A stretch of 40,024 bases of DNA, taken from positions 1 to 40,024 of the forward strand of contig JAPPOJ010000241.1 of NCBI GenBank assembly GCA_028817975.1. The letters run 5' to 3'. Every line of letters starts with the position of its first letter. The stretch's first letter is position 1. This document shows positions 1-26,610 of the stretch, piece by piece. The notes beneath the pieces were generated by a model. That model searched no databases. It was not told where the DNA came from and worked only from the letters and a program-made list of their open reading frames with translations. Made by a program: the position numbers and the translations under genes. Origin of the DNA: Zetaproteobacteria bacterium. Its GTDB lineage: Bacteria > Bdellovibrionota_B > Oligoflexia > Oligoflexales > Bog-1112.

Positions 1-1027
1 CCGTAAGTCCATTACGAATCCCCCCGGTTGCTATTTTAGGTAACCAAATACGCTGCCTATCGAGAGCTGCCAGCGCATAGGCCGTGGGAATCCCCCAATC
101 GCGAAAGGTTGCCCCTACCTGGCGGCCTGTGAGTTCTGAGGAACGCAGGCCTTCTAAGTAGCCCCACGAGGTTCCTCCACGCCCACCTAAATCGATCGCC
201 GCAACCCCTCGCTCTGCCAATCTAAGTGCCGAGCGTGGGTCTATTCCAGAACCCACTTCTTTCACCAGAACAGGCACTTCCAGTTGCGCACAAATTTTTT
301 CAAGGTTATCCCAAAAACCACTAAAAGTCACATCTCCTTCAGGTTGGATCAGCTCCTGCAAAACGTTCACATGCAACGCGAGCGCATCTGCTTCAATTTG
401 CTCAACCGCACGCTTACACAGGTCTACGGCCTTTTCCGAAGGGCCTTGCAGTTGGGCAACTCCTAGATTACCAATCAAAAAGACATCAGGAACATGTTTT
501 TTAACCTGAAATAAGGGGGCAAAAGCTTCGTTTTCCAAGGCCATACGCTGCGACCCTACCCCCATGGGCAGACCACACTTCACGGCAGCTCGGGCAAGGT
601 GAAGATTAATCTGTTGTCCTTTGAGAACTCCTCCGGTCATGCCTGTCAATAAGAGCGGAAAAGGGAAGGTTCGCCCCAAAAAGGAAGTTCGACAGTCTAA
701 ATCACAGAGATCAAAATCAGGTAACGCGCACACCTCTAAATGTAATTGGTCAAACCCTGTAAACCTATTGGTTTCTTCGACATTTTGCCCGGAACATAAT
801 TCAATATGGTCGTGCTTGCGCAAAAAAGACTGCAACAAATGAAAGATAGGTAAACTCTCCACCGTCGCCACAGCAAGATAGCGTTCCTCACGTGTAACTA
901 CGTCCTGAAACTGCACCGGCTGCAGCCCTAAAATAGGGAGATTATCCCAAAATAATGCATAGCACTCAGATAAGCACGGAGGAGCCAAAGAAGGGCTTTT
1001 CACCACCCACAACGTATCGTTCTCCAT
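1..1027 (-). CDS. fni: Type 2 (FMN-dependent) isopentenyl-diphosphate isomerase. Partial: the C-terminus runs off the left window edge.
   Basis: The minus-strand frame is open to position 1, so it is absent from the ORF track. Hand translation gives ...FLRKHDHIELC...FPFPLLLTGMTGG (Met codon at 640-638)...LPMGVGSQRMA...ALHVNVLQELIQPEGD...VLVKEVGSGI...DLGGRGGTSWG...ATGGIRNGL. These are the hallmark IDI-2 motifs. The start is uncertain: in-frame ATG at 1027 and 1066, an upstream stop at 1115-1117, and GTG/TTG codons nearer the RK motif (about 880-900) are also possible. Confidence 0.85.
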   Translation of the reverse strand, partial: MENDTLWVVKSPSLAPPCLSECYALFWDNLPILGLQPVQFQDVVTREERYLAVATVESLPIFHLLQSFLRKHDHIELCSGQNVEETNRFTGFDQLHLEVCALPDFDLCDLDCRTSFLGRTFPFPLLLTGMTGGVLKGQQINLHLARAAVKCGLPMGVGSQRMALENEAFAPLFQVKKHVPDVFLIGNLGVAQLQGPSEKAVDLCKRAVEQIEADALALHVNVLQELIQPEGDVTFSGFWDNLEKICAQLEVPVLVKEVGSGIDPRSALRLAERGVAAIDLGGRGGTSWGYLEGLRSSELTGRQVGATFRDWGIPTAYALAALDRQRIWLPKIATGGIRNGLT

Positions 1028-1131
1028 CCGTGTCACAGCGTAACTCACCCCTGCCGCCCCACGCATGGAGAGGTGATCCACATAACTTACCCCATCATCT
1101 GCATCTCTCACGACCTACTCCCAACCGTTTT

Positions 1132-4100
1132 TTAGTTCCAAACAGAGCTTTTCTTCAACACACCTTTACGGCGGTATGGTGTATGCGAGCGTGCCGGACA
1201 GATTTTTAAGTAGTACTGAGTCCGGCCCGCTTTCTCAAAAGAAGCCGATTCTACTAGTATTTTGCCTTGATGGGCCAAATATTCCAATGCAAGATCAAAG
1301 TCTGCAGGGGTGATATCAACTTTCTTTTGCACTTCAGCAAGTAGCTTGCCACGACTCCAAAAGCCTTTGCGAATCACACTCTGGAGGATGATGCGAGTCA
1401 TTTGCGCATCAGGACGCTGGTGCGGGACCAAAATTTTATCTAAGCGTTCATGGCCCGCACAGACATCACAGTGACCACAGGCTTGCTTTCCGTCATCGCC
1501 AAAATAGCGGATTAATTGCGCCATACGACAGTCCGAAGTATTAAAGCAAAAGCCGTACATCTGTTCTATTTCTAAGTTCTTGATCTTACGGCGTTCCAGA
1601 TAACGTTCCTCCCAACTCGCATCCGCACAGGATTTAACCCACCAAACACCATCTGGCTGCTGAACACACTCCACAGCTCCCCAATGAACAAAACGGTCGG
1701 CGAACCCATCTAGCTTCATCTCCGTAAGCCGTTCACAAAAATCCAACCATTCTAAGGGTTTTTTCTGTACACACTGCAAACCACGACGTAACTTACTTAA
1801 TTCTGGGTAGGTCTGCGCAAACATGATCCGTCGAAACTGCAAGTCACTTTCGGAATAAAATAAAACGGTCTGCGCAAGCAAACCATCACGGCCAGCACGG
1901 CCGATCTGTTGATAGTAGCTTGCCAAGGAATCTGGCAAAGTCATATGAATCACCGCTCTGACATTCGCTTTGTCAACTCCCATCCCAAAAGCAATGGTGG
2001 CGACCACCACCTCAATCTCATGAGCTAAAAAAGCATTTAAGACTTTACGCCGCACCTCACGGTCCATACCTCCGTGATAACACGCGGCACGAAACCTAGG
2101 CGCAAGTTGACGCGCAATATCCTCCGCATCAGCTTTACGCGCAACATAAATAATTGCAGGTAAATGTGCCTGCTTTTCCAGAAAACGTGAGGCTGCGGCC
2201 ACACGCCGATAAGACTCTAAAGTAGCCACCTGAATCGCCAAATTACCACGCCAAAACCCACGTATCACCTCGGCATATTCGGTCCCTAAGACCAGTTGCT
2301 CCACAATGTCATGCTTGACGGCAGGGGCTGCGGTTGCCGTTACAGCCATCCGTGGAACCCCCACAAAGCACGCCAGACGTTGGCCTAAATAACGGTAATC
2401 CACTCGAAAGTCATGTCCCCATTCCGAAACACAGTGCGCTTCATCAATGGCAATTAAACTTGGCTGTTGGCGCTGCAAAAGACGCACAAAGTAAGGAGAG
2501 CGCAAACGTTCGGGAGCAAAATAAAGAAAGTCCACCTCTCCAGCACAGTACTTACGAGCTATTTCATTTTGCTCGGCGGAGGATAAACCACTATGTACAC
2601 TAAACGCGTTCAAGTTAAGTTTGGTCAGTTTAAGAACCTGATCCTCAATCAAAGAAATCAGCGGACTGATGACCAACACAGGCCCCTGTCTCACATAACC
2701 AGGTAGTAAATAGCACAACGACTTACCACTGCCAGTGGGCATAATCACGAGGCCATTTCTCCCAGCAACGACCTCGCGTGCAATTTCTTCTTGACCTGGA
2801 CGAAAGTCTTTCATGGCAAACACACGTGCAAGCGTTGCATGTAGGTCACCCACCTGCTCCGCTTGCGTGACACTTTCTTGCGTCACCGCGACATCTTGCC
2901 GTTGCTCATCTCCAGCCATATGCAATATATTTTCCTCGAAAGAGTTATCTGCACCTGCTATTTGAGGTGCTTTTTGCAATTGAGTTAAAATTTCAGTGCC
3001 TGTTGTGACAAAATGGACCACATTTTGCAAGAACTCTTTTTTATCTTTGCGGCCCAAAGAAATGTCCTCCAGCGACTCCTCCCAATCTTTGGTAAGGGAA
3101 CAGTCTTGCAACTGAGGGGGAACACACTGCAAAAGCTCCTCCGCTTTCGCAGTTGAAGTAATTTTTTTACCTTCTCGACAAAGGTAGCCCCCCCCAATCA
3201 AACTCTCCAGCACCCCCGCACGCGTGGCTGCCGTCCCAATACCACAACGAGGACGAGATTCACGCGACACCTCTTCACTGGCCCCACCCATCTCCATGCA
3301 GCTCAACAAAGTTGCATCTGAAAAAGCCTGGGGCGGTACAGTAGCTCCAGTACGCACACGACCCGCAACCACCCACACAGGCTGCCCCACCGCAACATCC
3401 TGTAAAGGGTATTTGGTTTCCTTGTCCGTTGCCGTCGTTTTATGTAAGTCGGCTAAGCAGCTTTTCCACCCTAAACTTAGGGTCACCGTTTCATGAGAAA
3501 GTCCCACCCAAGTAGACAATGGCTGCGCACCCACAACCAAATAACGATGTTCACGAACGTATGGTTCCAAAAAGGTCGCCAAACTCAAACGACAAACCAA
3601 ATCAAAAAGGCGCTTTTCACCCAGCTCAGAAGAAGTGAGTAGCTTACCCGTAGGGACAATGGCATGATGATCCGTAGCTTGTGCATCCGAAACATAACGC
3701 TGGCGCTCCCAATGTGCGAAGTCCAATTTCGACACATACAAGGGAAACAGTTTGCGCAACGCAACGAGGCTCTCACGAAAAGTATCCAAATCATCCGAAG
3801 CAAGATAGCGACAATCTGTACGTGGATATGAGATGACTTTATGACGCTCGTACAAGGCCTGCATGACATCCAAAGTTTGCTGTGCTGTATACCCAAAAAA
3901 CCGGTTTGCATATTTCTGAATCGTAACCAGGTCAGGCAGTAAAGGGGGTTTGAGATGGACTTGCTCTTTTTTACAGTACAAGACGTACAGGTCCTGATCA
4001 CAAAACTGCCGCAATTGTAACGCCAGTTCTTGACGTGAATCTGTATAACGACGTGTCTGACTCCAATCTTTAAACCATGACATACCCAAGTCTGGACATT

Positions 4101-4923
4101 TTGTACGTAACGACGCAGCACGCAAGAGCCAGCCCACAAACTGTGCCGCACTGTCTTTCACAGGCAGATCAAGACACATCAAGTTCGCAGCTTGTCTTTC
4201 CTCCTCCGTGGAACAGACCACTTTTAACTCGCGATATTTCTCTTCCTTAAATTCACGAATCTTACGGTCACGTTGTGCAACCAAAGACAGCGTTGGCGTT
4301 TGGACCCGACCTACGGGAAAACGCTCTCCCAGCAGACTCGTACACCCTCGCGAAAAGTTAATCCCCACCAACCAGTCTGCCTGCGCACGCGCCACAGCCG
4401 ATTGATAGAGGTCATCAAAAGCGGTCGAAGGCTTCATCTGGGTAAAGGCAGTACAAATTGCTTTGGGCGTAAGGGAAGCTGTCCAAAAACGTTGCACAGG
4501 GTGGGTCCATCCCGACAACTGGTATAAAAAGCGAAAAATAAGCTCACCTTCACGGGCAGCGTCTGTCGCACACACCAGATGTTGAATCTCAGGACGAGCT
4601 GCAAGACGCTGTAAGAGAGCAATTTGCGCCTGCGCACTTTTCTTAGCCACAGGCTGCCACCCTGTAGGTACAATCGGTAAATGACTCAAATCCCAAGAAC
4701 GGTAACGCGCACTGAGCTGATTGGGTAAAGGAAAGCTTGCCACATGGCCCTTGGTCCAGCTGAGCAGTATACTTTCCGATTCGTAGTATTGTCCCTGATG
4801 CCTGAAACCACCTAATGCATTTGCAATAGCTTCGGCGACAATAGGTTTTTCCGCAATAATAAGCGCTCCAGATAAGCAGGAGAAGGCTTCACCACGTGTA
4901 CTCATCCACGCCCTTTTAAGCAA
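1132..4923 (-). CDS. Fusion protein: N-terminal type IA DNA topoisomerase (Topo III-like, aa 1 to about 655), an acidic linker, and a C-terminal RecQ-family helicase (aa about 695-1263).
   Basis: Single uninterrupted 1263-aa ORF. Topo IA motifs: IIAEKP (TOPRIM Glu), ATDAAREGE, GRVQTPTL, VISYPRTDCRYL (catalytic Tyr codon 3826-3828), HHAIVPT, GIGTAATRAGVLESL. RecQ motifs: FRPGQEEIAREVVAGRNGLVIMPTGSGKSLCY, DEAHCVSEWGHDFR, VTATA, the helicase C-domain (GMGVDKANVRAVIH, QQIGRAGRDG), and the Zn-binding CRMAQLIRYFGD...CGHCDVC. The ORF begins with TTG at 4923. An ATG at 4905 (MSTRGEAF...) is the more likely start. Confidence 0.85.
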   Translation of the reverse strand: MLKRAWMSTRGEAFSCLSGALIIAEKPIVAEAIANALGGFRHQGQYYESESILLSWTKGHVASFPLPNQLSARYRSWDLSHLPIVPTGWQPVAKKSAQAQIALLQRLAARPEIQHLVCATDAAREGELIFRFLYQLSGWTHPVQRFWTASLTPKAICTAFTQMKPSTAFDDLYQSAVARAQADWLVGINFSRGCTSLLGERFPVGRVQTPTLSLVAQRDRKIREFKEEKYRELKVVCSTEEERQAANLMCLDLPVKDSAAQFVGWLLRAASLRTKCPDLGMSWFKDWSQTRRYTDSRQELALQLRQFCDQDLYVLYCKKEQVHLKPPLLPDLVTIQKYANRFFGYTAQQTLDVMQALYERHKVISYPRTDCRYLASDDLDTFRESLVALRKLFPLYVSKLDFAHWERQRYVSDAQATDHHAIVPTGKLLTSSELGEKRLFDLVCRLSLATFLEPYVREHRYLVVGAQPLSTWVGLSHETVTLSLGWKSCLADLHKTTATDKETKYPLQDVAVGQPVWVVAGRVRTGATVPPQAFSDATLLSCMEMGGASEEVSRESRPRCGIGTAATRAGVLESLIGGGYLCREGKKITSTAKAEELLQCVPPQLQDCSLTKDWEESLEDISLGRKDKKEFLQNVVHFVTTGTEILTQLQKAPQIAGADNSFEENILHMAGDEQRQDVAVTQESVTQAEQVGDLHATLARVFAMKDFRPGQEEIAREVVAGRNGLVIMPTGSGKSLCYLLPGYVRQGPVLVISPLISLIEDQVLKLTKLNLNAFSVHSGLSSAEQNEIARKYCAGEVDFLYFAPERLRSPYFVRLLQRQQPSLIAIDEAHCVSEWGHDFRVDYRYLGQRLACFVGVPRMAVTATAAPAVKHDIVEQLVLGTEYAEVIRGFWRGNLAIQVATLESYRRVAAASRFLEKQAHLPAIIYVARKADAEDIARQLAPRFRAACYHGGMDREVRRKVLNAFLAHEIEVVVATIAFGMGVDKANVRAVIHMTLPDSLASYYQQIGRAGRDGLLAQTVLFYSESDLQFRRIMFAQTYPELSKLRRGLQCVQKKPLEWLDFCERLTEMKLDGFADRFVHWGAVECVQQPDGVWWVKSCADASWEERYLERRKIKNLEIEQMYGFCFNTSDCRMAQLIRYFGDDGKQACGHCDVCAGHERLDKILVPHQRPDAQMTRIILQSVIRKGFWSRGKLLAEVQKKVDITPADFDLALEYLAHQGKILVESASFEKAGRTQYYLKICPARSHTPYRRKGVLKKSSVWN

Positions 4924-7816: not shown

Positions 7817-7848
7817 GATAGAGAAAGACTGGAATGGTTTTTGGTCAG

Positions 7849-7873
7849 AAAAAGGGCGCTGCGCCCTTTTTTT
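7849..7873 (+). terminator. Rho-independent terminator after rpsD.
   Basis: AAAAAGGGCG-CTG-CGCCCTTTTTTT: GC stem at 7854-7858/7862-7866 with a 3-nt loop, flanked by A5 and T7 runs. Confidence 0.8.
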
Positions 7874-7903
7874 GCGTTTTTTACTCATGGGGTAGAGAAA
7901 TCT

Positions 7904-8923
7904 ATGGAGACAGAAGCAACACCTTCATCATCGCAGACAAACCTCCCCGAGAAGTCTGACCAACACCCAAGTCTTTTTGAGCGCATCTCAAACCTTAAGC
8001 ACACGTCTACCCCCCCCCTGGTGACAAACTCCACAAACTGCCCTCTCAGTGAACCCGTGCCCTGCTCTTTTTGCCGTGGCAAAGGAATTCGCTTAGCCAA
8101 ACCGAATGGGGCTTTCGCACAAGTCGAAATCTGCGTCTGTGTGCGCTCATGTAAAAGCTGTCAAGGAAGTGCTGTACGCCAAGGGCAAGATAGCCACGGC
8201 CTACGTACCGCCAAAAATTGCATCTCCCCCTCTCCACAACGACGCGCAAACCTCTTTAACCAAGCCAATATTCCTCTGCGCTATGCCACAGCTCGCCTCT
8301 CACGTTTAGATGCCAAATCAGAGCAAATGCAACAGGTAGGCGAACGTATTCAGCACTGGATCGGAGAACTTAAAAGTCAAGACCCTGCTAGCCCATGTAG
8401 AGGTTTTATTCTCCAAGGAGATGTCGGCATTGGCAAAACCTTTTTAGCAGCCGCTACCGCTAAACACCTTGCATATCACGGCTACGGGGTAAAGTTTGTC
8501 GACTTTTTCCAGTTAATCACTGAAATTAAAATCCGGCATTCCCAACAGCTTGAGTGGACCTCCAGTTTGTTTACCCCCTTAATCGAAGTAGAATTTCTGA
8601 TTATTGATGAGCTTGGCAAAGGACGACGTACAGAGTTCGAACAAACCGTGATCGACCAGCTCGTAGCACAGCGTTACAACCGCAATAAAACGATTATTGC
8701 CACCACCAACTGCACCCTCGAATCTCAAAGCACACACCTTAAAAAAGAAGGTGACTACAGTAGTAGTGATTTCAGTCAAAGCTCACCTTTAATCCAGGCC
8801 GTTGGAGCAAGAGTATACTCTCGGCTCTTAGAGATGTGCTCCCTCTGGAAAATCTCTGATGCCGAAGATCTCCGCGAACTTATGGCACAAAGATCACGCG
8901 ACTTTCACATGGGCCTGGAATGA
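7904..8923 (+). CDS. DnaC/DnaI/IstB-like AAA+ ATPase (putative helicase loader) with an N-terminal DnaJ-type zinc finger.
   Basis: Walker A GDVGIGKTFLAAA, Walker B LIIDELGKG, sensor IIATTN. The N-terminal Cys motifs are CSFCRGKG and CKSCQGSA. The track start at 7841 lies inside the rpsD terminator, so the ATG at 7904 (METEATPS...) is preferred. Confidence 0.7.
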   Translation: METEATPSSSQTNLPEKSDQHPSLFERISNLKHTSTPPLVTNSTNCPLSEPVPCSFCRGKGIRLAKPNGAFAQVEICVCVRSCKSCQGSAVRQGQDSHGLRTAKNCISPSPQRRANLFNQANIPLRYATARLSRLDAKSEQMQQVGERIQHWIGELKSQDPASPCRGFILQGDVGIGKTFLAAATAKHLAYHGYGVKFVDFFQLITEIKIRHSQQLEWTSSLFTPLIEVEFLIIDELGKGRRTEFEQTVIDQLVAQRYNRNKTIIATTNCTLESQSTHLKKEGDYSSSDFSQSSPLIQAVGARVYSRLLEMCSLWKISDAEDLRELMAQRSRDFHMGLE

Positions 8924-9816
8924 AATTATGCTTTGCCAAACAGCTTAAAAGGGGCTTTAGTTCCCCCCTCATCGGCATGCAAGTCAATGCTGAGGGTGTT
9001 GCCAGCCTCGGCCCCGCACACTTTTACCAATGCTGCAAGCAAGAGTGCATCCGACAACTTCAAACCTCGCCCAACCAGCTCGCCATATGTGCTATTGAAG
9101 AACGACTCACCATGGCACAGGAAATCCTCCACAAGTACAAAGAACTGAATCAAGGCGTTCCCCTAGAGATTGCTCGCTGGCAAGAGCACCCGCATGTCAT
9201 GCACTTTTATCGCTCTTTACTCGCTCCTAAATACTGGAATGCACGCACCCACTACCAAAACCCCAAAGGGAGTATTTTCTATTCCGGATCTCGTCCCACC
9301 CCCCAAAGCCCAAGCCCCGTACTGTGGACATGCGCGGTGGTATGTACATGGCGCTTTGGCTACCGCCCTTATATCCTAGCGCTCAAGCACAATACGGTAC
9401 CCAATACTCCCACACCTTCCCCTACACACCCGATCGTCATGATCGACCAAATGGGATCGTTGAGAAATCCGACCTATGCTTTTCAATTTGCAGCGCAAGT
9501 TAAATGGTGTGAGAACGCACTAGCACCGTTATGGATGGACATCAGCTCCGAGCAGTTCCAAGCACATGCCACTTTCGAACAATGGAAAAACAGCAACACA
9601 ATGAGCGGACTCCCACGCCAAAAAAACCTCCACCAAATCAGCAAAAAAGACTTAAACGCACTGAGCGTTGTTGCACGGGCAAAGGTCGTCAGCCTCAAGC
9701 GTCTCGCGGCCACTTCTCCCCTAGACTGGGCGAATGACTTTGACAGCAGTTGCCTTGCACGCCTAGAATCTGTCGCCCATAGAGACGACCTCAACCATAC
9801 AGGGACATTCATCTGA
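8920..9816 (+). CDS. Hypothetical protein, translationally coupled to the DnaC-like gene.
   Basis: 298-aa ORF whose ATG overlaps the upstream stop (ATGA at 8920-8923). I recognise no motif. The central segment is Pro/Thr-rich and low in complexity. Confidence 0.45.
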   Translation: MKLCFAKQLKRGFSSPLIGMQVNAEGVASLGPAHFYQCCKQECIRQLQTSPNQLAICAIEERLTMAQEILHKYKELNQGVPLEIARWQEHPHVMHFYRSLLAPKYWNARTHYQNPKGSIFYSGSRPTPQSPSPVLWTCAVVCTWRFGYRPYILALKHNTVPNTPTPSPTHPIVMIDQMGSLRNPTYAFQFAAQVKWCENALAPLWMDISSEQFQAHATFEQWKNSNTMSGLPRQKNLHQISKKDLNALSVVARAKVVSLKRLAATSPLDWANDFDSSCLARLESVAHRDDLNHTGTFI

Positions 9817-17699: not shown

Positions 17700-20213
17700 G
17701 TGAAACGAAGTAAAGCGATACGTATTGTCGGCGCTGAAGAACACAATCTTAAAAATATTGATGTTGAATTTCAACGCGGAAAGATTACCACCGTGACTGG
17801 GGTCAGTGGCTCAGGGAAAAGCTCCCTGGTTTTTGATACACTCTTATCCGAGTCCCAACGGCGTTTTTTCTACACCTTATCTCATTACGCCCGCCAATTC
17901 CTTTCGGCGGATGAAAAACCCAAATTTTTGCGTATCGAAGGCCTTTCCCCGTCTATCGGGCTCGCACAAAATGAAACGCTGCTCTCCCGCCGCTCCAGCG
18001 TTGCCACCGAGTCCGATATCGGCGAACTTATGGGAGTTGCTTTTGCACGTTATGGCAACTACCTTTGTCCCACACACCAGCTCGATACCACCGCGCAAAG
18101 TATAGACAGCGTCATCAAACGCTTGATTCACGAGCAAGAAGGTAAAGTTATTGCAATCTGCGCGCAAATCATCGAAGAAAAGCGCGGCCACTACCGTAGC
18201 GAACTTGAGACCTTTGCCAAAAAAGGTTTCACCAAAGCACTCATTGACGGCAAGGTCACCCCGTTGACTCCCATTCCAGAACTCGACAAAAGTCGTAAAC
18301 ACTCGATCGCTTTGATTATTGACTATGTCAGCCTGACGGCAGCGAAAAAAAAGCGTATCCAACAAAGTATCGAAACCGCAATCCAAATCACCCCGGAAGA
18401 ATTTGCGATTGTGGAAGCCAAATCACCACAAGCATTCGAGCTGTCTTCATGGCTTAAAATCTCTTTGGCTTCCGGCTGTCCCCAGTGCGGCTACTCATGG
18501 ACCAAGCTCGATTCACGTCATTTTTCCCCGAACTCTCTAGGTAAATGCACCTACTGTTCAGGTCTTGGCAGTGCAGCCGACACAGGGGAGCACGACATCA
18601 AAGATCCCTACCAAAAATGCCCCCACTGCCAGGGGGTAGGACTGAAGCAGGATTTAGAGTCCGTGCGCTTGTCGGGTATAAGTATTTTTGATTGCTATCA
18701 AACGCCTATCGCCACAAACCTAAAATTCTGGAAGCAACTCGGACAAAAATCGAAAAGTAAACCCGCTTTGCTGCGGCTCTGCCACGAAATCATGGCTAAA
18801 ATGGCTCAAATGGGGGATATGGGGATCGACTACCTCTCCCTTTCCCGACGCCTGCCCACACTTTCCGGAGGTGAACTGCAAAGGTTAAAGCTTTCCTCAC
18901 TATTCTCAGACAACTTACATGGACTGATTTACGTTTTAGACGAGCCAAGCCAAGGATTACACACACAAGAAATCACCAAACTCATGGATAAGCTACGTCA
19001 ACTCGCTGACATGGGCAATACAGTGCTGATCGTCGACCATGACGAACTGGTCATGCAGATGAGCGATCAAATTCTTGAGCTTGGTCCCGAAGGTGGGCTG
19101 AAAGGTGGTCAGCTCATCGCACAGTTTCCTCCTCAAGCAGCCTCAAAGTGGGCGCGCAAAAGTTTAACGGCCCGTTACTTGCATGAGTACATGACCCAAG
19201 GCACCCGCACCACACGCAGCAAATGCCCCCTGCCGAAAGAAGATGCGGATAACTGGATTTGCCTCACCGAACTCAAATTAAACTGTTTAAAGATACCCCG
19301 TGTCGCTTTTAAGCGCCACGCCTTAAACGTGGTCACGGGAGTCTCAGGGGCAGGCAAGTCTTCCCTCGTGTTTGGCTCCTTACTCCCCACCCTCAAAGCC
19401 TGCAAAGATGGTCAACTGGAGACCTTTTTCACGACCCATGCAACGATTGCCCGCTCTATCTCCACACTCCCGACCCAAACCACCATTGATGCCATCGATC
19501 GCCGCCCCATGGGGCGCAGTCGACTCAGTATGCCCGTAACTTATTTAGGAGCCTATACCGCAATCCGCGAACTCTACGCTTCTCTTCCGGAAGCCCAAAT
19601 CATGGGCATCACCGCCAAGGACCTATCCCTCCTCAGTAAAGGAGGGCGCTGCGAAGACTGCAAAGGACGTGGCTACATCGAACTGAGTATGAAATTTCTC
19701 TCCGATGCTAAAGTCACCTGTACATCCTGCTTAGGCATGCGCTTTGGGATGATGGTGCTACAGCTCAAATATCTCAACAAAAATCTGAATGATGTACTCA
19801 ATATGACGATCCGGGAAGCCGCAGAGGTATTTGCCAAACACCCAAGTATCTGCCGCAAACTCCAACCGGCAATCGACTTAGGCCTGGGTTACCTGCAACT
19901 CGGCCAACCGGTCATCACCCTCTCGGGGGGGGAAGCTCAACGCATCCGCCTTGCCCCATACTTCGCGAAAAAGAAAGATGAGCATGCGATTATCCTCATG
20001 GATGAGCCAACCCAAGGACTACACTCCCAAGATGTAGATGTGTTAATCCATAACCTACGTAACCTCACCGCGAAAGGGATCACCATTGTGGTAATCGAAC
20101 ACCATCCTGCACTGGAACAAGCTGCCGACTGGATTTTAGAACTAGGTCCCGGAGCAGGCAGCCAAGGAGGCAAACTCGTCTGGCAGGGAATGAATGCTCC
20201 AACAAAGACCTAA
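17700..20213 (+). CDS. UvrA-family ABC ATPase (short paralogue, 837 aa).
   Basis: Two ABC modules: GVSGSGKSSLVFDTL with LSGGELQRLKL, and GVSGAGKSSLVFGSL with LSGGEAQRIRL. Zn modules: CPTH...CPQCG, CTYCSGLG...CPHCQGVG, CEDCKGRG...CTSCLG. The start lies 56 nt after the folB stop, with AAAGGAAA upstream. Confidence 0.85.
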   Translation: MKRSKAIRIVGAEEHNLKNIDVEFQRGKITTVTGVSGSGKSSLVFDTLLSESQRRFFYTLSHYARQFLSADEKPKFLRIEGLSPSIGLAQNETLLSRRSSVATESDIGELMGVAFARYGNYLCPTHQLDTTAQSIDSVIKRLIHEQEGKVIAICAQIIEEKRGHYRSELETFAKKGFTKALIDGKVTPLTPIPELDKSRKHSIALIIDYVSLTAAKKKRIQQSIETAIQITPEEFAIVEAKSPQAFELSSWLKISLASGCPQCGYSWTKLDSRHFSPNSLGKCTYCSGLGSAADTGEHDIKDPYQKCPHCQGVGLKQDLESVRLSGISIFDCYQTPIATNLKFWKQLGQKSKSKPALLRLCHEIMAKMAQMGDMGIDYLSLSRRLPTLSGGELQRLKLSSLFSDNLHGLIYVLDEPSQGLHTQEITKLMDKLRQLADMGNTVLIVDHDELVMQMSDQILELGPEGGLKGGQLIAQFPPQAASKWARKSLTARYLHEYMTQGTRTTRSKCPLPKEDADNWICLTELKLNCLKIPRVAFKRHALNVVTGVSGAGKSSLVFGSLLPTLKACKDGQLETFFTTHATIARSISTLPTQTTIDAIDRRPMGRSRLSMPVTYLGAYTAIRELYASLPEAQIMGITAKDLSLLSKGGRCEDCKGRGYIELSMKFLSDAKVTCTSCLGMRFGMMVLQLKYLNKNLNDVLNMTIREAAEVFAKHPSICRKLQPAIDLGLGYLQLGQPVITLSGGEAQRIRLAPYFAKKKDEHAIILMDEPTQGLHSQDVDVLIHNLRNLTAKGITIVVIEHHPALEQAADWILELGPGAGSQGGKLVWQGMNAPTKT

Positions 20214-20379
20214 CCTTTTACACTTCTAACCTGCCTAGTCACGTCCCCCTCATTTTCATCTACAATGATTGCTGAGTAGCCAACTGAATGTCGCAAGGTC
20301 AGCACCTTGCCAGGGATGAAGGCACACGCTTTCACTCTTGCATTTTTTTGAAACTAACGTCATCCAAAGGAGGCTCAGG

Positions 20380-21447
20380 TTGCGTTCACCAGGCGAAAAG
20401 GTCTTTCTTATTTTCTTTTTTCCGACGGTTATCGGATTTTACCTCATCTACAAATATCCCCTGTGGTTTGTCGCCGCAGACGAGGTCGAGAGTTCATTCT
20501 ACTGGTTGGGTAAATCTACCAGCTTTTGGTATAACACCGTATACAGCGGTCTCGTATGTTTTATCTCAGCTCGGGTCATCCTCTCGAATAAAACTCCCTA
20601 TGGCAAAAACAAACAAGCGCCTCTGAGTAGCTATCAGAAAAAAAAGTTTACCAGTATTTTCTTTGCTCAACTGATTTTTTTCTACCTCATTCCCTTCTAT
20701 CTGCCCTACCTCTTCAACGATAAAAACTTCTTCCAAGACACCTACGCTCCCTTAAATAAAAATGCATATGTCTATGTCTACAACGGTTTCACCTCCCTGA
20801 GTGGCTTTCTATACGTGTTTATCGTCGTCCCGATTTCCGTATGGTTCTTAGGCAAACGTTATTGCTCCTGGTTCTGCGCATGTGGCAACTTGGCCGAAGC
20901 CATTGGAGTCACCAAACTCGGCAACAAATGGGTGACGCAACATACCCCCCGAGGACAAACCTCGCTCAAGCTCGAAAAACTCCAGTATGCTTTTCTCGTT
21001 TTTGCGATCTTCTTTGGCCTGTTGCTTTTCTTTGATACGTGGAAAATTGTCACCGCACCGAACCTCGTGCAGTCTGTCCGTGAGGTACAAGATTTTGCTG
21101 TAGACCTAATGTTTGGGGCACTGATTGGAGTGGGTGCCTACCCGCTGCTAGGTACACGGATTTGGTGCCGCTACGGCTGTCCACTGGCTGGGGGTATGCG
21201 TCTCTTCGGCAAATTTTCCAAATCACGCTTTAAAGTCGTCGCCAATAAAGGCTGCAAAGGTCTCAACCTATGCAGCACACAGTGCCCTATGGGCATCGAT
21301 GTCGCCAGCTACGCCCATGAAAATAAGGTCCCCACGCAAGGGAGCTTCGGGCTGCAGAACTCTCCCTGCATTGGCTGCGGCGGATGCGTCGATATCTGCC
21401 CTGTCAAAGCCTTGTCTTTTCAAAAAGTTCTCAACCCCACGCCATAA
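20380..21447 (+). CDS. NapH/MauN-like integral-membrane polyferredoxin (4Fe-4S binding).
   Basis: Several TM helices. Cys motifs YCSWFCACG and IWCRYGCPLAG, plus two ferredoxin motifs, CKGLNLCSTQCPMG and CIGCGGCVDICPV. The TTG at 20380 is preceded by AAAGGAGG with a 6-nt spacer. The track start at 20338 is less likely. Confidence 0.7.
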   Translation: MRSPGEKVFLIFFFPTVIGFYLIYKYPLWFVAADEVESSFYWLGKSTSFWYNTVYSGLVCFISARVILSNKTPYGKNKQAPLSSYQKKKFTSIFFAQLIFFYLIPFYLPYLFNDKNFFQDTYAPLNKNAYVYVYNGFTSLSGFLYVFIVVPISVWFLGKRYCSWFCACGNLAEAIGVTKLGNKWVTQHTPRGQTSLKLEKLQYAFLVFAIFFGLLLFFDTWKIVTAPNLVQSVREVQDFAVDLMFGALIGVGAYPLLGTRIWCRYGCPLAGGMRLFGKFSKSRFKVVANKGCKGLNLCSTQCPMGIDVASYAHENKVPTQGSFGLQNSPCIGCGGCVDICPVKALSFQKVLNPTP

Positions 21448-21457
21448 GGTACATCGC

Positions 21458-22636
21458 ATGGAAGCAACCACCCCATACCAAGGCCTGTTCTATCTCTCTT
21501 TGGGATTTAGTGCGTTTTCCTTTTTACTGCTCGGTTTTCGTATCATGAGCAATGAACTCGCCCAGCAAGAAAGCCAAACTACGGAGTTTTCGGACGCGTG
21601 GCATCACAAAGAACCACTCGAAATCATCGAAATCATCGAAGAAACCCATGATATTCGTTCTATACGCTTTAAGAGAATGGACGACAAAAAAATACCGCTC
21701 TTTTCTCCGGGTCAGTTCTTAAGCTTTCAAATAGGTGACAACCCCAAACTACTACGCTCCTATTCCATCTCGACCCCATCCACAAGCCACGAGACGATTC
21801 AAGTCTCGGTTAAAAAACTCAACGGTGGGGTAGGTTCCAACTGGTTTCATAAACTCGAAGTGGGTCAAAAAGTTTTTGCTTATCCACCCTCGGGGCTATT
21901 TACCGACGATAAGCTGGGAGAAGGCGAACGCGTCTACATTGCGGGAGGTATCGGGATCACTCCCATGGTATCGATGATCCTGAGCAATATCGAAAAGGTA
22001 CTTAAGTGTCGTATGTCACTTTTCTATGGGATGCGCTCCGAGCAGGATCTCGCCTTTCATGACTTATTCCACTACCTCTCCAAACGTTACCCACAGTTTT
22101 CTTATTACCCCATCCTTTCTCAAGCCCCCCAAGATTGGCGAGGAGACCAAGGGCATATTGACCTCAAATGGATACAAAGCAAAATCAACCTAACCGAGGA
22201 TACCCACATCTTTATGTGTGGCCCCAGTGGCATGACCACCACTCTCGAAGACCAGCTCGAAGCAAGTGGCTTTAGTTTGGAGCGTGTGCATGCCGAGAAA
22301 TTCGCCTCCCCAGTAGAGTTCGACCGCGAGAGCATCCCGCAACAAAGCGTGACGCTGTCCTGGGATGGAACCGAACACGCCTATTCGGGCAAACAAACTC
22401 TCCTAGAGTTTTTCGAAGAAAAATCCATACCGATTCCCTACGCCTGCCGCGTAGGAGTCTGTGGCACGTGCAAGTGCAAGGCAGAAGGGCAAGCCCATCA
22501 GATTACCGACGCCGGCTTAACCACTTACGAGAAGCGTGCAGGAATGATTCTGACCTGTGTCAGCTTTCCTCTCAGCGACATGCAGCTCCACAGCGTCGAC
22601 ACATCCTCTGATAAGCATCAGACCAAGCCGGCATGA
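21458..22636 (+). CDS. Membrane-anchored FNR-family oxidoreductase with a C-terminal plant-type 2Fe-2S ferredoxin domain.
   Basis: ATG at 21458 (MEATTPYQGLFYLSLGFSAFSFLLLGF is the TM anchor). FAD motif RSYSIS, NAD motif GGIGITPM, CGPSGM, and 2Fe-2S motif CRVGVCGTCKC...LTCVS. The track start at 21299 overlaps the upstream gene by 150 nt and is rejected. Confidence 0.8.
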   Translation: MEATTPYQGLFYLSLGFSAFSFLLLGFRIMSNELAQQESQTTEFSDAWHHKEPLEIIEIIEETHDIRSIRFKRMDDKKIPLFSPGQFLSFQIGDNPKLLRSYSISTPSTSHETIQVSVKKLNGGVGSNWFHKLEVGQKVFAYPPSGLFTDDKLGEGERVYIAGGIGITPMVSMILSNIEKVLKCRMSLFYGMRSEQDLAFHDLFHYLSKRYPQFSYYPILSQAPQDWRGDQGHIDLKWIQSKINLTEDTHIFMCGPSGMTTTLEDQLEASGFSLERVHAEKFASPVEFDRESIPQQSVTLSWDGTEHAYSGKQTLLEFFEEKSIPIPYACRVGVCGTCKCKAEGQAHQITDAGLTTYEKRAGMILTCVSFPLSDMQLHSVDTSSDKHQTKPA

Positions 22637-25802: not shown

Positions 25803-25808
25803 GGATAC

Positions 25809-25995
25809 GCAGTCTGATCGCTCCAATTGGAGAACCGATGCTTAAAAAAGAGGGAGCTAGACGCGGGTTCGGTGCGCAAGCCTTCCCAAGAGCAGCTTCA
25901 CGTCAAGCTGTCACGGTTAGAGGGAAGCCTAAAGAACTCTCCGAGGCACCCACCTAGTGAATTGGGTTCTCCCAGTTCTAGAGCCTTCAGGCTGC
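25809..25995 (+). ncRNA. Candidate structured small RNA of about 187 nt with a rod-like, 6S (SsrS)-like architecture. Identity not established.
   Basis: The 5' arm (25809-25836) pairs with the 3' arm (25965-25995): GCAGUCUGA/UCAGGCUGC, GCUC/GAGC, AAUU/AGUU, GGAGAACC/GGUUCUCC. Nested inner helices are GGUGC/GCACC (25871-75/25946-50), CUUCCC/GGGAAG (25882-87/25922-27) and GCAGCUU/AAGCUGU (25892-98/25905-11, 6-nt loop). Three G-U pairs would be A-C mismatches on the other strand, which favours the + strand. A large asymmetric internal loop (34 nt vs 14 nt) separates the terminal helix from the inner helices. Confidence 0.45.
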
Positions 25996-26610
25996 CTGCA
26001 CCCAAGAAAAAACGTCTTTTTCAAACGACAAAAAGAGGCTACCTTCCATATCTTGTAAGTAACGATAGAACTCTGCCCCACCTCCAAGACGCTCAAGTTC
26101 ACGGTCAATTTCCCGCAGATGCGAGGCTTCTTCCCGGATCAACCATTGTAAAGAAAACAAGCCCCGAGCTTTCAAGACTTGATGGTAAATTTGATAAAGT
26201 TGTACCGCACGCACTTCCACAAGCTTCGTCACCCACAAATAACACTGCGACTTCCACACCGACTCATGCACTTCACCACGCATCCACGCAGCTTTAACCG
26301 CTCGGGTGACCCCAGCGTCCAATAAATGCAAATACCGCCGTAAATAGTGATAACGACGCTGGGGTAGACTTTGAGACACGCCAAGTTCCCTGGCACGCGA
26401 CATAAAGAAAAACGCATGGCGAAACTCCTCCGCCGCGTGTTGCAGATGTTCGACTTCAGGGGACCACTGAGGTAAAAAAGCTGCGATCTTCGCCGCGCCG
26501 ACATACTCCAGCTGTCCCAACGTCGACAACCAACGATGATGCAACACAGGACTTGCAACGATCTGCTCTAGACACTTGTACCATTGGCTTTGTTCCACCA
26601 TGAACCCCAT
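25987..26610 (-). CDS. Ferritin-like di-iron carboxylate protein, function unknown.
   Basis: 207 aa, predicted all-helical. Two ExxH motifs (AAEEFRHA and REEASHLRE) are each preceded by a lone Glu in a helix (LEYVGAAK, LVEVRAVQ). This is the E...ExxH...E...ExxH di-iron pattern. Confidence 0.55.
   Translation of the reverse strand: MGFMVEQSQWYKCLEQIVASPVLHHRWLSTLGQLEYVGAAKIAAFLPQWSPEVEHLQHAAEEFRHAFFFMSRARELGVSQSLPQRRYHYLRRYLHLLDAGVTRAVKAAWMRGEVHESVWKSQCYLWVTKLVEVRAVQLYQIYHQVLKARGLFSLQWLIREEASHLREIDRELERLGGGAEFYRYLQDMEGSLFLSFEKDVFSWVQAA

Follow-up and report, generated by a model that had tools for sequence, protein, structure and literature searches.

The interval 1132-4923 of the 40,024-nucleotide stretch of DNA analysed here (the window) raises the question of whether one polypeptide can combine a complete Topo III with a complete RecQ helicase and, if it does, what such a protein would do. 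The cooperation of RecQ and Topo III is well documented (PMC2647321, PMC7614492, PMC8185306). The covalent one-chain form is an unstudied version of this known partnership, whose partners are normally separate. An earlier note on this DNA had proposed such a fusion and called it a one-chain dissolvasome. The locus is a real, chromosomally inherited single-chain Topo III-RecQ gene, a divergent HRDC-less member of a widespread and experimentally unstudied family, and we consider it probable that its product acts by a tethered unlinking mechanism.

Reading frame, domains and catalytic motifs

The whole fusion gene is a single uninterrupted ORF on the minus strand at 1132..4923, with its stop codon at 1132-1134 and a TTG at 4923, and it encodes 1263 aa counted from the TTG (ORF list). 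The continuous frame described in the earlier note was therefore found again, and the strand, which it had not given, is the minus strand. The likelier start codon is not the TTG at 4923 but the ATG at 4905 (M7), since this ATG is preceded by an AAGGG Shine-Dalgarno-like motif and would yield a protein of 1257 aa, the length at which the protein is called in a public protein collection (P0001).

All Pfam matches scored above the gathering score and lay in the order predicted beforehand, all on the minus strand. They are the TOPRIM domain (Toprim, aa 21-136, 4516..4863, E 8.9e-07), the type IA topoisomerase core with domains II-IV (Topoisom_bac, aa 170-633, 3025..4416, E 4.2e-80), RecQ helicase lobe 1 (DEAD, aa 708-868, 2320..2802, E 1.8e-25), lobe 2 (Helicase_C, aa 911-1014, 1882..2193, E 1.7e-24), which aligns to the RecQ cores 4tmu and 1oyw, and the RecQ Zn-binding region (RecQ_Zn_bind, aa 1110-1155, 1459..1596, E 5.5e-11). 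The one domain of the forecast that Pfam did not match in the window protein was RQC. A C-terminal winged-helix, RQC-like domain was instead seen in the structural model at aa ~1173-1243 (1195..1407, minus strand), with an H-H-H-beta-beta topology predicted by AlphaFold.

Every motif quoted in the earlier note was present. In the topoisomerase half, the TOPRIM Glu25 lies inside AEKP, the catalytic Tyr366 lies in SYPRTD (codon at nt 3826-3828), and a loop at aa ~545-560 aligns where E. coli Topo III has its decatenation loop. Helicase lobe 1 carries motif 0 (FRPGQ), Walker A (GSGKS, Lys734), DEAH at 827-830 and TATA, and lobe 2 includes motif VI, QQIGRAGRDG. The Zn cysteines C1132, C1149, C1152 and C1155 are invariant columns in the family alignment. 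Conservation across 60 relatives extends to AEKP, GRVQTPTL, SYPRTD, DHHAI, GxGTxATRA, FRxxQ, GSGKS, DEAHC, GRAGRDG and the Zn cysteines. Since the catalytic residues of both halves are conserved in all 60 of the aligned relatives, both activities appear to be under selection. The acidic TOPRIM motif reads D121-A-A-R-E125, whereas the canonical form is DxDxE, so that the second Asp is replaced by Ala. Of 56 Topo III representatives of stand-alone length in the same subfamily, 55 carry the D-A-G/A form, so the altered motif characterises this Topo III subfamily throughout, members of stand-alone length included.

The N-terminal half matched E. coli Topo III with an E of 2e-63, and the RecQ half matched the E. 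coli and Cronobacter RecQ cores (1oyw, 4tmu) with an E of 1e-85 (phmmer). The window protein scored 355 bits with TIGR00614 recQ_fam, above the cutoff of 219.8, and fell below the NCBIfam equivalog-level cutoffs for both Topo III (484 bits vs 597) and RecQ (423 vs 640). The suggestion that the helicase takes the place of a Zn-ribbon C-terminus did not hold, as the closest matches are Topo III and the alignment reaches near the end of the E. coli enzyme, window aa 637 pairing with residue 597 of 653. In this kind of Topo III the tail is short.

Predicted folds, the tether and the HRDC domain

AlphaFold was run on the two halves separately, the N-terminal half being aa 1-700, and gave a pLDDT of 85.7 for this half and 85.6 for the RecQ half. 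The best Foldseek match of the aa 1-700 model was E. coli Topo III (1d6m, E 4e-48, TM 0.85), and that of the RecQ-half model was the RecQ catalytic core (E 1.6e-35). About 597 columns were aligned to the 511-residue RecQ core 4tmu, which includes the WH domain. Pfam, NCBIfam, the alignments and AlphaFold/Foldseek thus agree with the earlier note on a complete Topo III and a complete RecQ core in a single polypeptide, in the order opposite to that of reverse gyrase.

The RecQ half also contains an inserted module of ~60 aa, ahead of the Zn site (aa ~1040-1100, 1624..1806, minus strand). It has no counterpart in 1oyw and 4tmu when these are aligned by phmmer, and AlphaFold modelled it as three helices and a beta-hairpin at pLDDT 83-92. 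A stand-alone RecQ (P0281) aligns across it without a gap, and the module, which is not in E. coli RecQ, is conserved in this RecQ subfamily. A disordered tail of 20 aa follows the winged-helix domain.

The two halves are joined at aa ~640-697 (nt ~2833-3006) by a non-conserved, Gln-rich segment with a net charge of -8, which bears out the acidic linker reported before. The core of this tether, aa ~652-690 (2854..2970, minus strand), is predicted to be disordered, with pLDDT <50 in both half-models. The linkers of the relatives are 39-143 aa long, Pro/Ala-rich and unconserved. Because the linker is unconserved and disordered, we regard the two modules as tethered partners and not as a rigid machine of the reverse gyrase kind.

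No HRDC domain was matched by Pfam in the window protein. It is also lacking in P0002 but is present in the ortholog L004, in the Oligoflexus protein L005 and in most other relatives, and no other long ORF was found in the 1.1 kb downstream of the fusion gene. The window copy has lost this domain, which the majority of its relatives retain. The absence of HRDC noted earlier therefore stands for this copy and fails as a trait of the family. BLM and E. coli RecQ are reported to require their HRDC to unwind double Holliday junctions (PMC1616949), so the dissolvasome reading is weaker for the window copy than for its relatives. What stands of that reading is the single chain with both modules; dissolution itself is a putative function.

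Relatives, inheritance and genomic context

The same architecture was found in at least 119 other clusters at 90% identity, with 96-98% coverage and on independent contigs, and in about 39-55 clusters at 50% identity. The sources are Acidobacteriota, Polyangiaceae and Oligoflexia MAGs, where the proteins are labelled just "DNA topoisomerase 3", and full-length fusion genes are present in Acidobacteriota, Oligoflexus and Polyangiaceae genomes. With so many clusters from several phyla, the fusion is no rarity. Full-text literature searches nevertheless found no paper characterising a Topo III-RecQ fusion, and it is absent from topoisomerase reviews of 2009, 2020, 2021 and 2024, which give reverse gyrase as the only helicase-topoisomerase fusion, in agreement with the earlier remark that no characterised Topo IA-RecQ protein was known.

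The window copy is divergent: its identity to any relative is at most 39% (50% representative search), and clustering at 50% identity leaves it in a cluster of its own. The uncharacterised fusions HWQ52199.1 (Bryobacteraceae MAG), HUP24449.1 (Thermoanaerobaculia MAG), L005 (Oligoflexus sp.) and L004 (CALBMD010000444.1) resemble it in domain order, in catalytic motifs, in the WH-like insert of the RecQ half and in having a variable disordered linker, with 34-39% identity over 96-98% of the protein. Unlike most fusions, the window copy has no C-terminal HRDC and its linker is acidic and Gln-rich instead of Pro/Ala-rich; its domain II insertion is longer than in the others. The survey proposed earlier showed that the domain order is widespread and, as to coexisting copies, that a fusion and a separate RecQ-like gene occur together in one MAG (L012, L016), so that the role of the fusion may be a more restricted and specialised one.

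The window shares a block of M4-peptidase, rpsD and IstB-like genes in synteny with L004 and with L081/L082. The syntenic ortholog L004, itself a single ORF of 1261 aa, shows vertical inheritance of the fusion in the Oligoflexia-like lineage. The genomic context is a housekeeping one, with rpsD, the nqr operon, Tex and 6S RNA among the neighbours, and the GC content of the gene equals that of its flanks. No Rmi1-like partner was seen near the fusion gene.

Proposed function, alternatives and known systems

We infer all enzymatic activities and substrates of the fusion, and most likely its helicase and its strand-passage enzyme, held together by the tether, would unlink intermediates of replication and recombination. 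The C-terminal RecQ module, with its SF2 ATPase core, Zn site, winged helix and extra WH-like insert, would bind forked or partly single-stranded DNA and unwind the duplex using ATP. The N-terminal Topo III module, kept close by a flexible tether of ~40-60 residues, would depend on the single-stranded DNA so exposed as its substrate. Topo III would then cleave a single strand by means of Tyr366, pass a second strand or a duplex through the opening and reseal the break. The outcome would be an ATP-stimulated unlinking of late replication intermediates, converging forks, precatenanes, hemicatenanes and recombination joint molecules, for which the fusion would guarantee 1:1 stoichiometry and co-localisation.

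Other readings were weighed against this one. An ATP-driven supercoiling enzyme, a mesophilic reverse gyrase analogue of reversed order whose helicase locally unwinds while the topoisomerase fixes a directional linking-number change, and whose main role is not the unlinking of joint molecules, seems unlikely. Both ingredients of reverse gyrase, the SF2 helicase and the type IA topoisomerase, are likewise combined in one chain here, reverse gyrase structures turn up when the fold of the N-terminal half is compared (E ~1e-25), and RecQ-Topo III cooperation alters supercoiling (PMC7245102). But the domain order is opposite, the reverse gyrase model TIGR01054, with a cutoff of 471.7, reaches 57 bits and only in the TOPRIM region, the long, disordered and unconserved linker gives no sign of latch-like rigid coupling, and in place of the minimal helicase-like module of reverse gyrase there is a full RecQ with Zn site and WH. 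A role mainly on RNA-containing structures (R-loops, transcription-replication conflicts), or as an RNA topoisomerase, instead of on DNA intermediates of recombination or replication, we hold to be slightly less likely still. Type IA Topo III enzymes are able to work on RNA and to suppress R-loops (PMC7614492), and the missing HRDC argues against dedicated dHJ processing; the RecQ module, however, bears the DNA-helicase hallmarks of Zn site and WH, and the sequence has no RNA-specific features and no RNA-binding domains by Pfam.

It is improbable that one module has lost its catalytic activity and does no more than bind DNA for the other or target it. The missing second Asp of TOPRIM and the unusual divergence of this copy would fit such a loss, but the catalytic Tyr, TOPRIM Glu, Walker A, DEAH, motif VI and Zn cysteines are intact and family-invariant, and the D-A-G/A motif is common to nearly all of the stand-alone-length Topo III representatives. 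Very improbable is a component of anti-phage or mobile-element defence, either a DpdF-like helicase of the Dpd 7-deazaguanine DNA-modification/restriction system or part of another defence island. DpdF shares a RecQ-like SF2 helicase core with the fusion, and the PADLOC profile PDLC02865 "DpdF" matches the whole protein with 708 bits and relatives with up to 1693 bits. Yet this profile has 1499 positions spanning both halves, appears to be built from fusion proteins and amounts to a profile of the fusion family, while the curated NCBIfam DpdF model, with a cutoff of 550, gives 187 bits and covers the helicase part only. No Dpd or other defence genes lie near the fusion in the window or at five other loci, none of 72,556 plasmid and 50,697 phage records had a match covering at least 80% of the query, and the gene sits within the conserved housekeeping synteny block. 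An assembly or frameshift artefact joining two adjacent genes is hardly credible: recQ and topB neighbours exist in Listeria, so that a missed stop could in principle make a false fusion, but there recQ precedes topB, the reverse of the order in the fusion. The same Topo-then-RecQ ORF runs without a break in more than 100 independent contigs that come from different studies, L004 is likewise one ORF, and at the junction the reading frame stays open and no signal of an alternative frame is seen.

The proposed unlinking by a tethered pair has its nearest counterparts in separate proteins. RecQ and Topo III (with SSB) in E. coli and Sgs1/BLM-Top3-Rmi1 in eukaryotes do this job with enzymes of these two families, and labour is presumably split in the same way, the helicase providing ssDNA and the type IA enzyme strand passage. 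In these systems, however, the polypeptides are separate and eukaryotes add the OB-fold partner Rmi1, whereas the fusion is covalently 1:1. Listeria monocytogenes offers the split counterpart, with the same two functions genomically linked: its recQ and Topo III genes (WP_014601216.1, WP_014601215.1) lie 23 nt apart on one strand, an adjacency that supports functional coupling. They differ from the fusion in being two genes with recQ first, and that RecQ is annotated as an ordinary HRDC-type enzyme. Reverse gyrase, like the fusion, joins an SF2 helicase-type ATPase to a type IA topoisomerase in one chain, but it has an N-terminal, minimal non-RecQ helicase-like module, a latch and tight inter-domain coupling, and is confined to thermophiles. 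The fusion instead places the topoisomerase first, carries a full RecQ with Zn site and WH behind a floppy linker, and comes from lineages reported from soil and water metagenomes that are presumably mesophilic.

Domain architecture of the Topo III-RecQ fusion

The fusion gene lies on the minus strand of the window (1132..4923) and, as the earlier note claimed, the ORF list gives it as one open frame, with 1263 codons counted from a TTG. Because an AAGGG motif stands ahead of an ATG at nt 4905, six codons past the TTG, and the resulting 1257-aa product agrees in length with P0001, the public-collection entry for the window protein, this ATG is the likelier start. Pfam placed Toprim (aa 21-136), Topoisom_bac (aa 170-633; E 4e-80, 270 bits against a cutoff of 35.1), DEAD (aa 708-868), Helicase_C (aa 911-1014), and RecQ_Zn_bind (aa 1110-1155) in sequence along the chain, all above gathering score. 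This is the order that the earlier note had expected, except that the RQC model it also named found no match in the window protein. At least 119 other clusters (90% identity) hold proteins of 1209-1443 aa with the same Pfam set, 34-39% identical over 96-98% of the query. Since these come from many independent assemblies, the fusion is a real gene and not an artefact. Judged by motifs, predicted folds, and Pfam and RecQ-family thresholds, its product is assigned to both the type IA/Topo III and the RecQ families.

Among solved structures, the N-terminal half matched E. coli Topo III (E 2e-63). The protein was modelled with AlphaFold as two separate halves, aa 1-700 and aa 640-1263, the first of which reached a pLDDT of 85.7 and a pTM of 0.84 with a predicted four-domain toroidal fold. 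The best Foldseek matches of this model were the E. coli Topo III structures 1d6m and 2o5c (E 4e-48, TM 0.82-0.85, ~650 columns), 1d6m alone giving E 4e-48 and TM 0.85. A flexible loop at aa ~545-560 (pLDDT ~53) is predicted where the decatenation loop of E. coli Topo III aligns, and is similar to it in length. The catalytic Tyr366 is invariant in the fusion family, and S-Y366-P-R-T-D aligns with T-Y-P-R-S-D of E. coli Topo III; an active-site Tyr followed by Pro is given as a Topo III feature in PMC10969213. The full-length NCBIfam cutoffs for Topo III were not reached (PRK07726, 484 vs 597 bits; TIGR01056, 397.5 vs 515.75 bits), a shortfall expected of a protein that lacks the C-terminal tail of Topo III. 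In the TOPRIM domain, Glu25 (AEKP), Asp121, and Glu125 are present and the second Asp of DxDxE, the acidic metal-binding motif beside the catalytic Glu, is replaced by Ala (D-A-A-R-E). Loss of this residue was considered as a mark of inactivation or decay and rejected: of the 56 Topo III representatives of stand-alone length that are closest, 55 have the form D-A/S-G/A-R-E, which marks it as a trait of the subfamily rather than damage.

The motifs that the earlier note had listed were all present in the window protein and are conserved across 60 relatives, including FRPGQ (motif 0), GSGKS (Walker A, Lys734), DEAHC, and QQIGRAGRDG (motif VI) in the RecQ half. This half scored 354.9 bits with TIGR00614 (recQ_fam), above the curated RecQ-family threshold of 219.8, and 422.8 bits with the RecQ equivalog TIGR01389, below its cutoff of 640.2. 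It matched the solved RecQ cores of Cronobacter (E 1e-85) and E. coli (E 2e-84), and the four Zn-site cysteines are invariant in the fusion family. The model of aa 640-1263 (pLDDT 85.6) matched the RecQ cores 4tmu and 1oyw in Foldseek with E about 2e-35; its alignment to 4tmu spanned ~597 columns, nearly all of the 511-residue RecQ catalytic core, with TM 0.77. Since the model has a helix-helix-helix-hairpin domain at aa ~1173-1243, a winged helix appears to be present there despite the silent RQC profile. Compared with E. coli RecQ, the protein has a ~60-residue insert before the Zn site (aa ~1040-1100; three helices and a hairpin, pLDDT 83-92), which is common to stand-alone RecQs of the same subfamily (P0281 and L006-L010).

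The halves are joined by a Gln-rich segment (aa ~652-686) with a net charge of -8 and a pLDDT <50 in both half-models. In relatives, the corresponding segment ranges from 39 to 143 aa and is Pro/Ala-rich and unconserved; we conclude that the linker is a flexible tether.

HRDC is a domain of bacterial RecQ proper, not of every RecQ-family member. The window protein ends 20 residues past the winged helix and has no Pfam match to HRDC; downstream there is no HRDC remnant, and the next 1.1 kb contains nothing but an FMN-dependent dehydrogenase/IDI-2-like gene, which continues past the edge of the window. The HRDC absence claimed from the sequence is genuine for the window copy. It is shared by P0002, and the domain is kept in the syntenic ortholog L004, in the Oligoflexus locus L005, and in most relatives.

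Distribution, descent, and genomic surroundings

An exhaustive search covered 1.84 billion sequences, each representing one cluster at 50% identity. Fusion-length proteins ranked at the top, followed at lower scores by stand-alone RecQ and Topo III proteins. The Tyr motif and DEAH occurred together in 39 of the 148 best matches among these representatives, and classification by domain coordinates gave 55 fusions in 169 sequences. A scan of species-representative genomes with RecQ-generic patterns, which yields examples and no census, gave full-length matches in at least four Acidobacteriota MAGs, an Oligoflexus sp. MAG (1349-aa ORF), and a Polyangiaceae MAG among the matches listed; the genome of the window itself was not among them. 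The order Toprim, Topoisom_bac, linker, DEAD, Helicase_C, RecQ_Zn, winged helix also holds in L004, L005, L083, L085, and L086. Two of the fusions, HWQ52199.1 and HUP24449.1, carry the sole name "DNA topoisomerase 3." The family is known as deposits many times over, and on sequence comparison the window protein is a new, divergent member of it. Stand-alone RecQ is not simply replaced by the fusion everywhere, since the Polyangiaceae MAG JAVTWR01 has a full-length fusion (L012) plus a separate RecQ-like gene of the same subfamily (L016).

In the window lineage, the fusion is vertically inherited and fast-evolving. This follows from contig CALBMD010000444.1 (L004), which has the gene order of the window (orf298, IstB-like ATPase, rpsD, M4-like peptidase, and a divergent 1261-aa fusion gene), from the identities between the two loci (68% for rpsD and merely 37% for the fusion proteins), and from L081/L082, the loci encoding P0002, which also have the divergent peptidase gene. 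The M4-like peptidase/rpsD block alone is conserved, within the window's own lineage only; acidobacterial fusion-gene neighbourhoods are unrelated to each other and to the window. A conserved partner gene (Rmi1-like or SSB) was sought in the fusion neighbourhoods and none was found, the surroundings varying by lineage. In neighbour-joining trees of each half, the fusions were intermixed with single-module sequences, many of them possibly metagenomic fragments, and the window branch was long.

The window is ordinary chromosome. Its GC content is uniform, and the neighbours include rpsD, apbE with the nqrA-F operon, a UvrA-like ABC ATPase, an M16 peptidase, 6S RNA, Tex, and acyl-CoA carboxylase genes; Tex is ~55% identical to proteins named from Oligoflexales, Oligoflexus, and Pseudobacteriovorax, an approximate placement by which the organism probably belongs to a deep, Oligoflexia-like branch (Bdellovibrionota). 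A match covering at least 80% of the protein was found in 0 of 72,556 plasmid records and in 0 of 50,697 phage records, a search in which stand-alone Topo III was common on conjugative plasmids. In Listeria monocytogenes (L087, NZ_LR134400.1, 3983-7932), recQ is followed on the same strand by a Topo III gene after a 23-nt gap. This adjacency is an independent genomic link between both functions, a split counterpart in the opposite order. The record NZ_LR134400.1 is filed as a 593-kb "plasmid" and looks like chromosomal DNA.

Several further features of the window were recorded. The gene at 2-1114 (minus strand; FMN_dh match) starts ~20 nt after the fusion stop and runs off the left edge; by eye it resembles a type-2 isopentenyl-diphosphate isomerase, and it may share a transcript with the fusion gene. 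Directly after rpsD lies an IstB/DnaC-like AAA+ ATPase whose N-terminus is Cys-rich (7841-8923, plus strand), overlapped by a 298-aa ORF with no Pfam match (8920-9816, plus strand). The trio of rpsD, ATPase, and 298-aa ORF is conserved in L004 (19-1541), and the latter two may represent a helicase-loader-like pair specific to the lineage instead of a remnant of IS21. The UvrA-like ABC ATPase (17700-20213, plus strand; 837 aa, with the UvrA interaction domain), which we take to be shorter than canonical UvrA, may be a UvrA paralogue. A 4Fe-4S ferredoxin-domain protein (20338-21447, plus strand) and a FAD/NAD/2Fe-2S reductase (21299-22636, plus strand) are encoded by ORFs that overlap by ~150 nt; probably the reductase start is mis-assigned or both ORFs were once fused. 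Two ORFs from the mechanical listing, at 25827-26297 (plus strand) and 25987-26610 (minus strand), overlap the 6S/SsrS RNA gene (25808-25997, plus strand; Rfam RF00013, 54.1 bits, gathering score 46.4). GC skew is negative in all 1-kb bins of window 1-40024 (-0.05 to -0.26) whatever the gene strand, which is unusually strong, and AT skew is mostly positive. Because the GC skew is negative throughout and the majority of long genes are on the minus strand, the window seems to lie within one replichore, with the plus strand as the lagging strand.

Proposed function of the fusion

Across all domains of life, helicases of the RecQ type work together with type IA topoisomerases, RecQ unwinding supplies the ssDNA for Topo III, and a defective human pair leads to Bloom-type genome instability. 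The physical coupling of motor and gate is still debated. Duplex DNA is reportedly catenated and decatenated by RecQ together with Topo III (Harmon et al. 1999). E. coli RecQ and Topo III jointly resolve converging replication forks (PMC7614492; PMC2647321) and hemicatenanes (PMC8185306), and eukaryotic BLM/Sgs1-Top3-Rmi1 performs double Holliday junction (dHJ) dissolution (PMC7245102). The simplest reading of the fusion is that it would be a tethered version of the RecQ and Topo III pair, with the activities presumed from that pair. The RecQ module would load on DNA and unwind it; the Topo III module, kept near by the floppy linker, would cut via Tyr366; and a strand or duplex would go through the Topo III gate, followed by resealing. 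The catalytic residues of both modules are kept across a family diverged to ~35% identity, which would imply selection on both activities.

Several variants of this reading can be weighed. BLM and E. coli RecQ are reported to need HRDC in order to unwind dHJs (PMC1616949). Since the window enzyme is without this domain, by analogy the unlinking of replication intermediates or hemicatenanes is more likely its task than that of a dedicated dHJ dissolvase, and the HRDC-bearing relatives would be better candidates for a dissolvase. Rigid coupling of the reverse-gyrase kind would seem disfavoured, because the linker is unconserved. We also consider it unlikely that covalent coupling gives an activity absent from the separate proteins, such as Rmi1-independent ATP-driven hemicatenane/dHJ dissolution or directional supercoiling strand passage; if it did, the family would be the mesophilic counterpart of reverse gyrase with the domain order inverted, and a natural "dissolvasome" in minimal form. 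A widespread natural Topo III-RecQ chain would be a "Rosetta-stone" confirmation of the partnership in bacteria; the textbook partnership and the abundance of the fusion lower the surprise. The fusion would offer a compact one-protein system for structural and single-molecule study of unwinding coupled to strand passage, and its natural HRDC-plus and HRDC-minus variants can be compared, making helicase-topoisomerase coupling directly testable. The helicase half is hidden in hundreds of deposits named merely "DNA topoisomerase 3."

Comparison with known systems

The PADLOC model PDLC02865, labelled "DpdF" after the Dpd-system helicase, gave 708 bits on the window protein and 1693 bits on the related fusion P0003, which would point to a role in defence. 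The two halves of the window protein match positions 27-656 and 743-1292 of its 1499 positions, N-terminal and C-terminal half respectively, so the model amounts to a profile of Topo III-RecQ fusions. The curated NCBIfam DpdF model NF041063 covered the helicase part alone and, at 186.9 bits, stayed below its cutoff of 550; among the neighbours of the fusion gene the defence and Dpd models found no match except for a generic resemblance of the UvrA-like protein to ABC ATPases. With a score below the curated threshold, no dpd or defence neighbours, and absence from the plasmid and phage records, a DpdF or defence role was rejected, and the window protein falls outside DpdF. PDLC02865, whose matches include the relative P0002 as well, will flag housekeeping fusion genes as defence and is likely to produce false "Dpd" calls in defence annotation.

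To our knowledge, reverse gyrase, with its non-RecQ helicase, is the sole natural fusion studied so far. The statement that no Topo III-RecQ fusion had been characterised agrees with the open full-text literature, in which no description of one was found; subscription-only papers lay outside this search, and a brief prior mention there is possible. A 2009 phylogenomic review (PMC2647321) and a 2021 archaeal review (PMC8185306) make no mention of such a fusion, a 2020 PNAS paper describes hyperthermophiles as having "uniquely" fused helicase and topoisomerase units (PMC7245102), and a 2024 review of type IA diversity names reverse gyrase as the sole topoisomerase using a helicase domain (PMC10969213). 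An identity with reverse gyrase was rejected: TIGR01054 covered the TOPRIM region alone and scored 57 bits, below its cutoff of 471.7, and the domain order is reversed, as the earlier note had stated. Reverse gyrase has its helicase-like module at the N-terminus and its Topo IA module at the C-terminus, whereas in the window protein the Topo half comes first and RecQ second. By analogy, the window protein may be likened to the RecQ and Topo III pair, carried in one chain.
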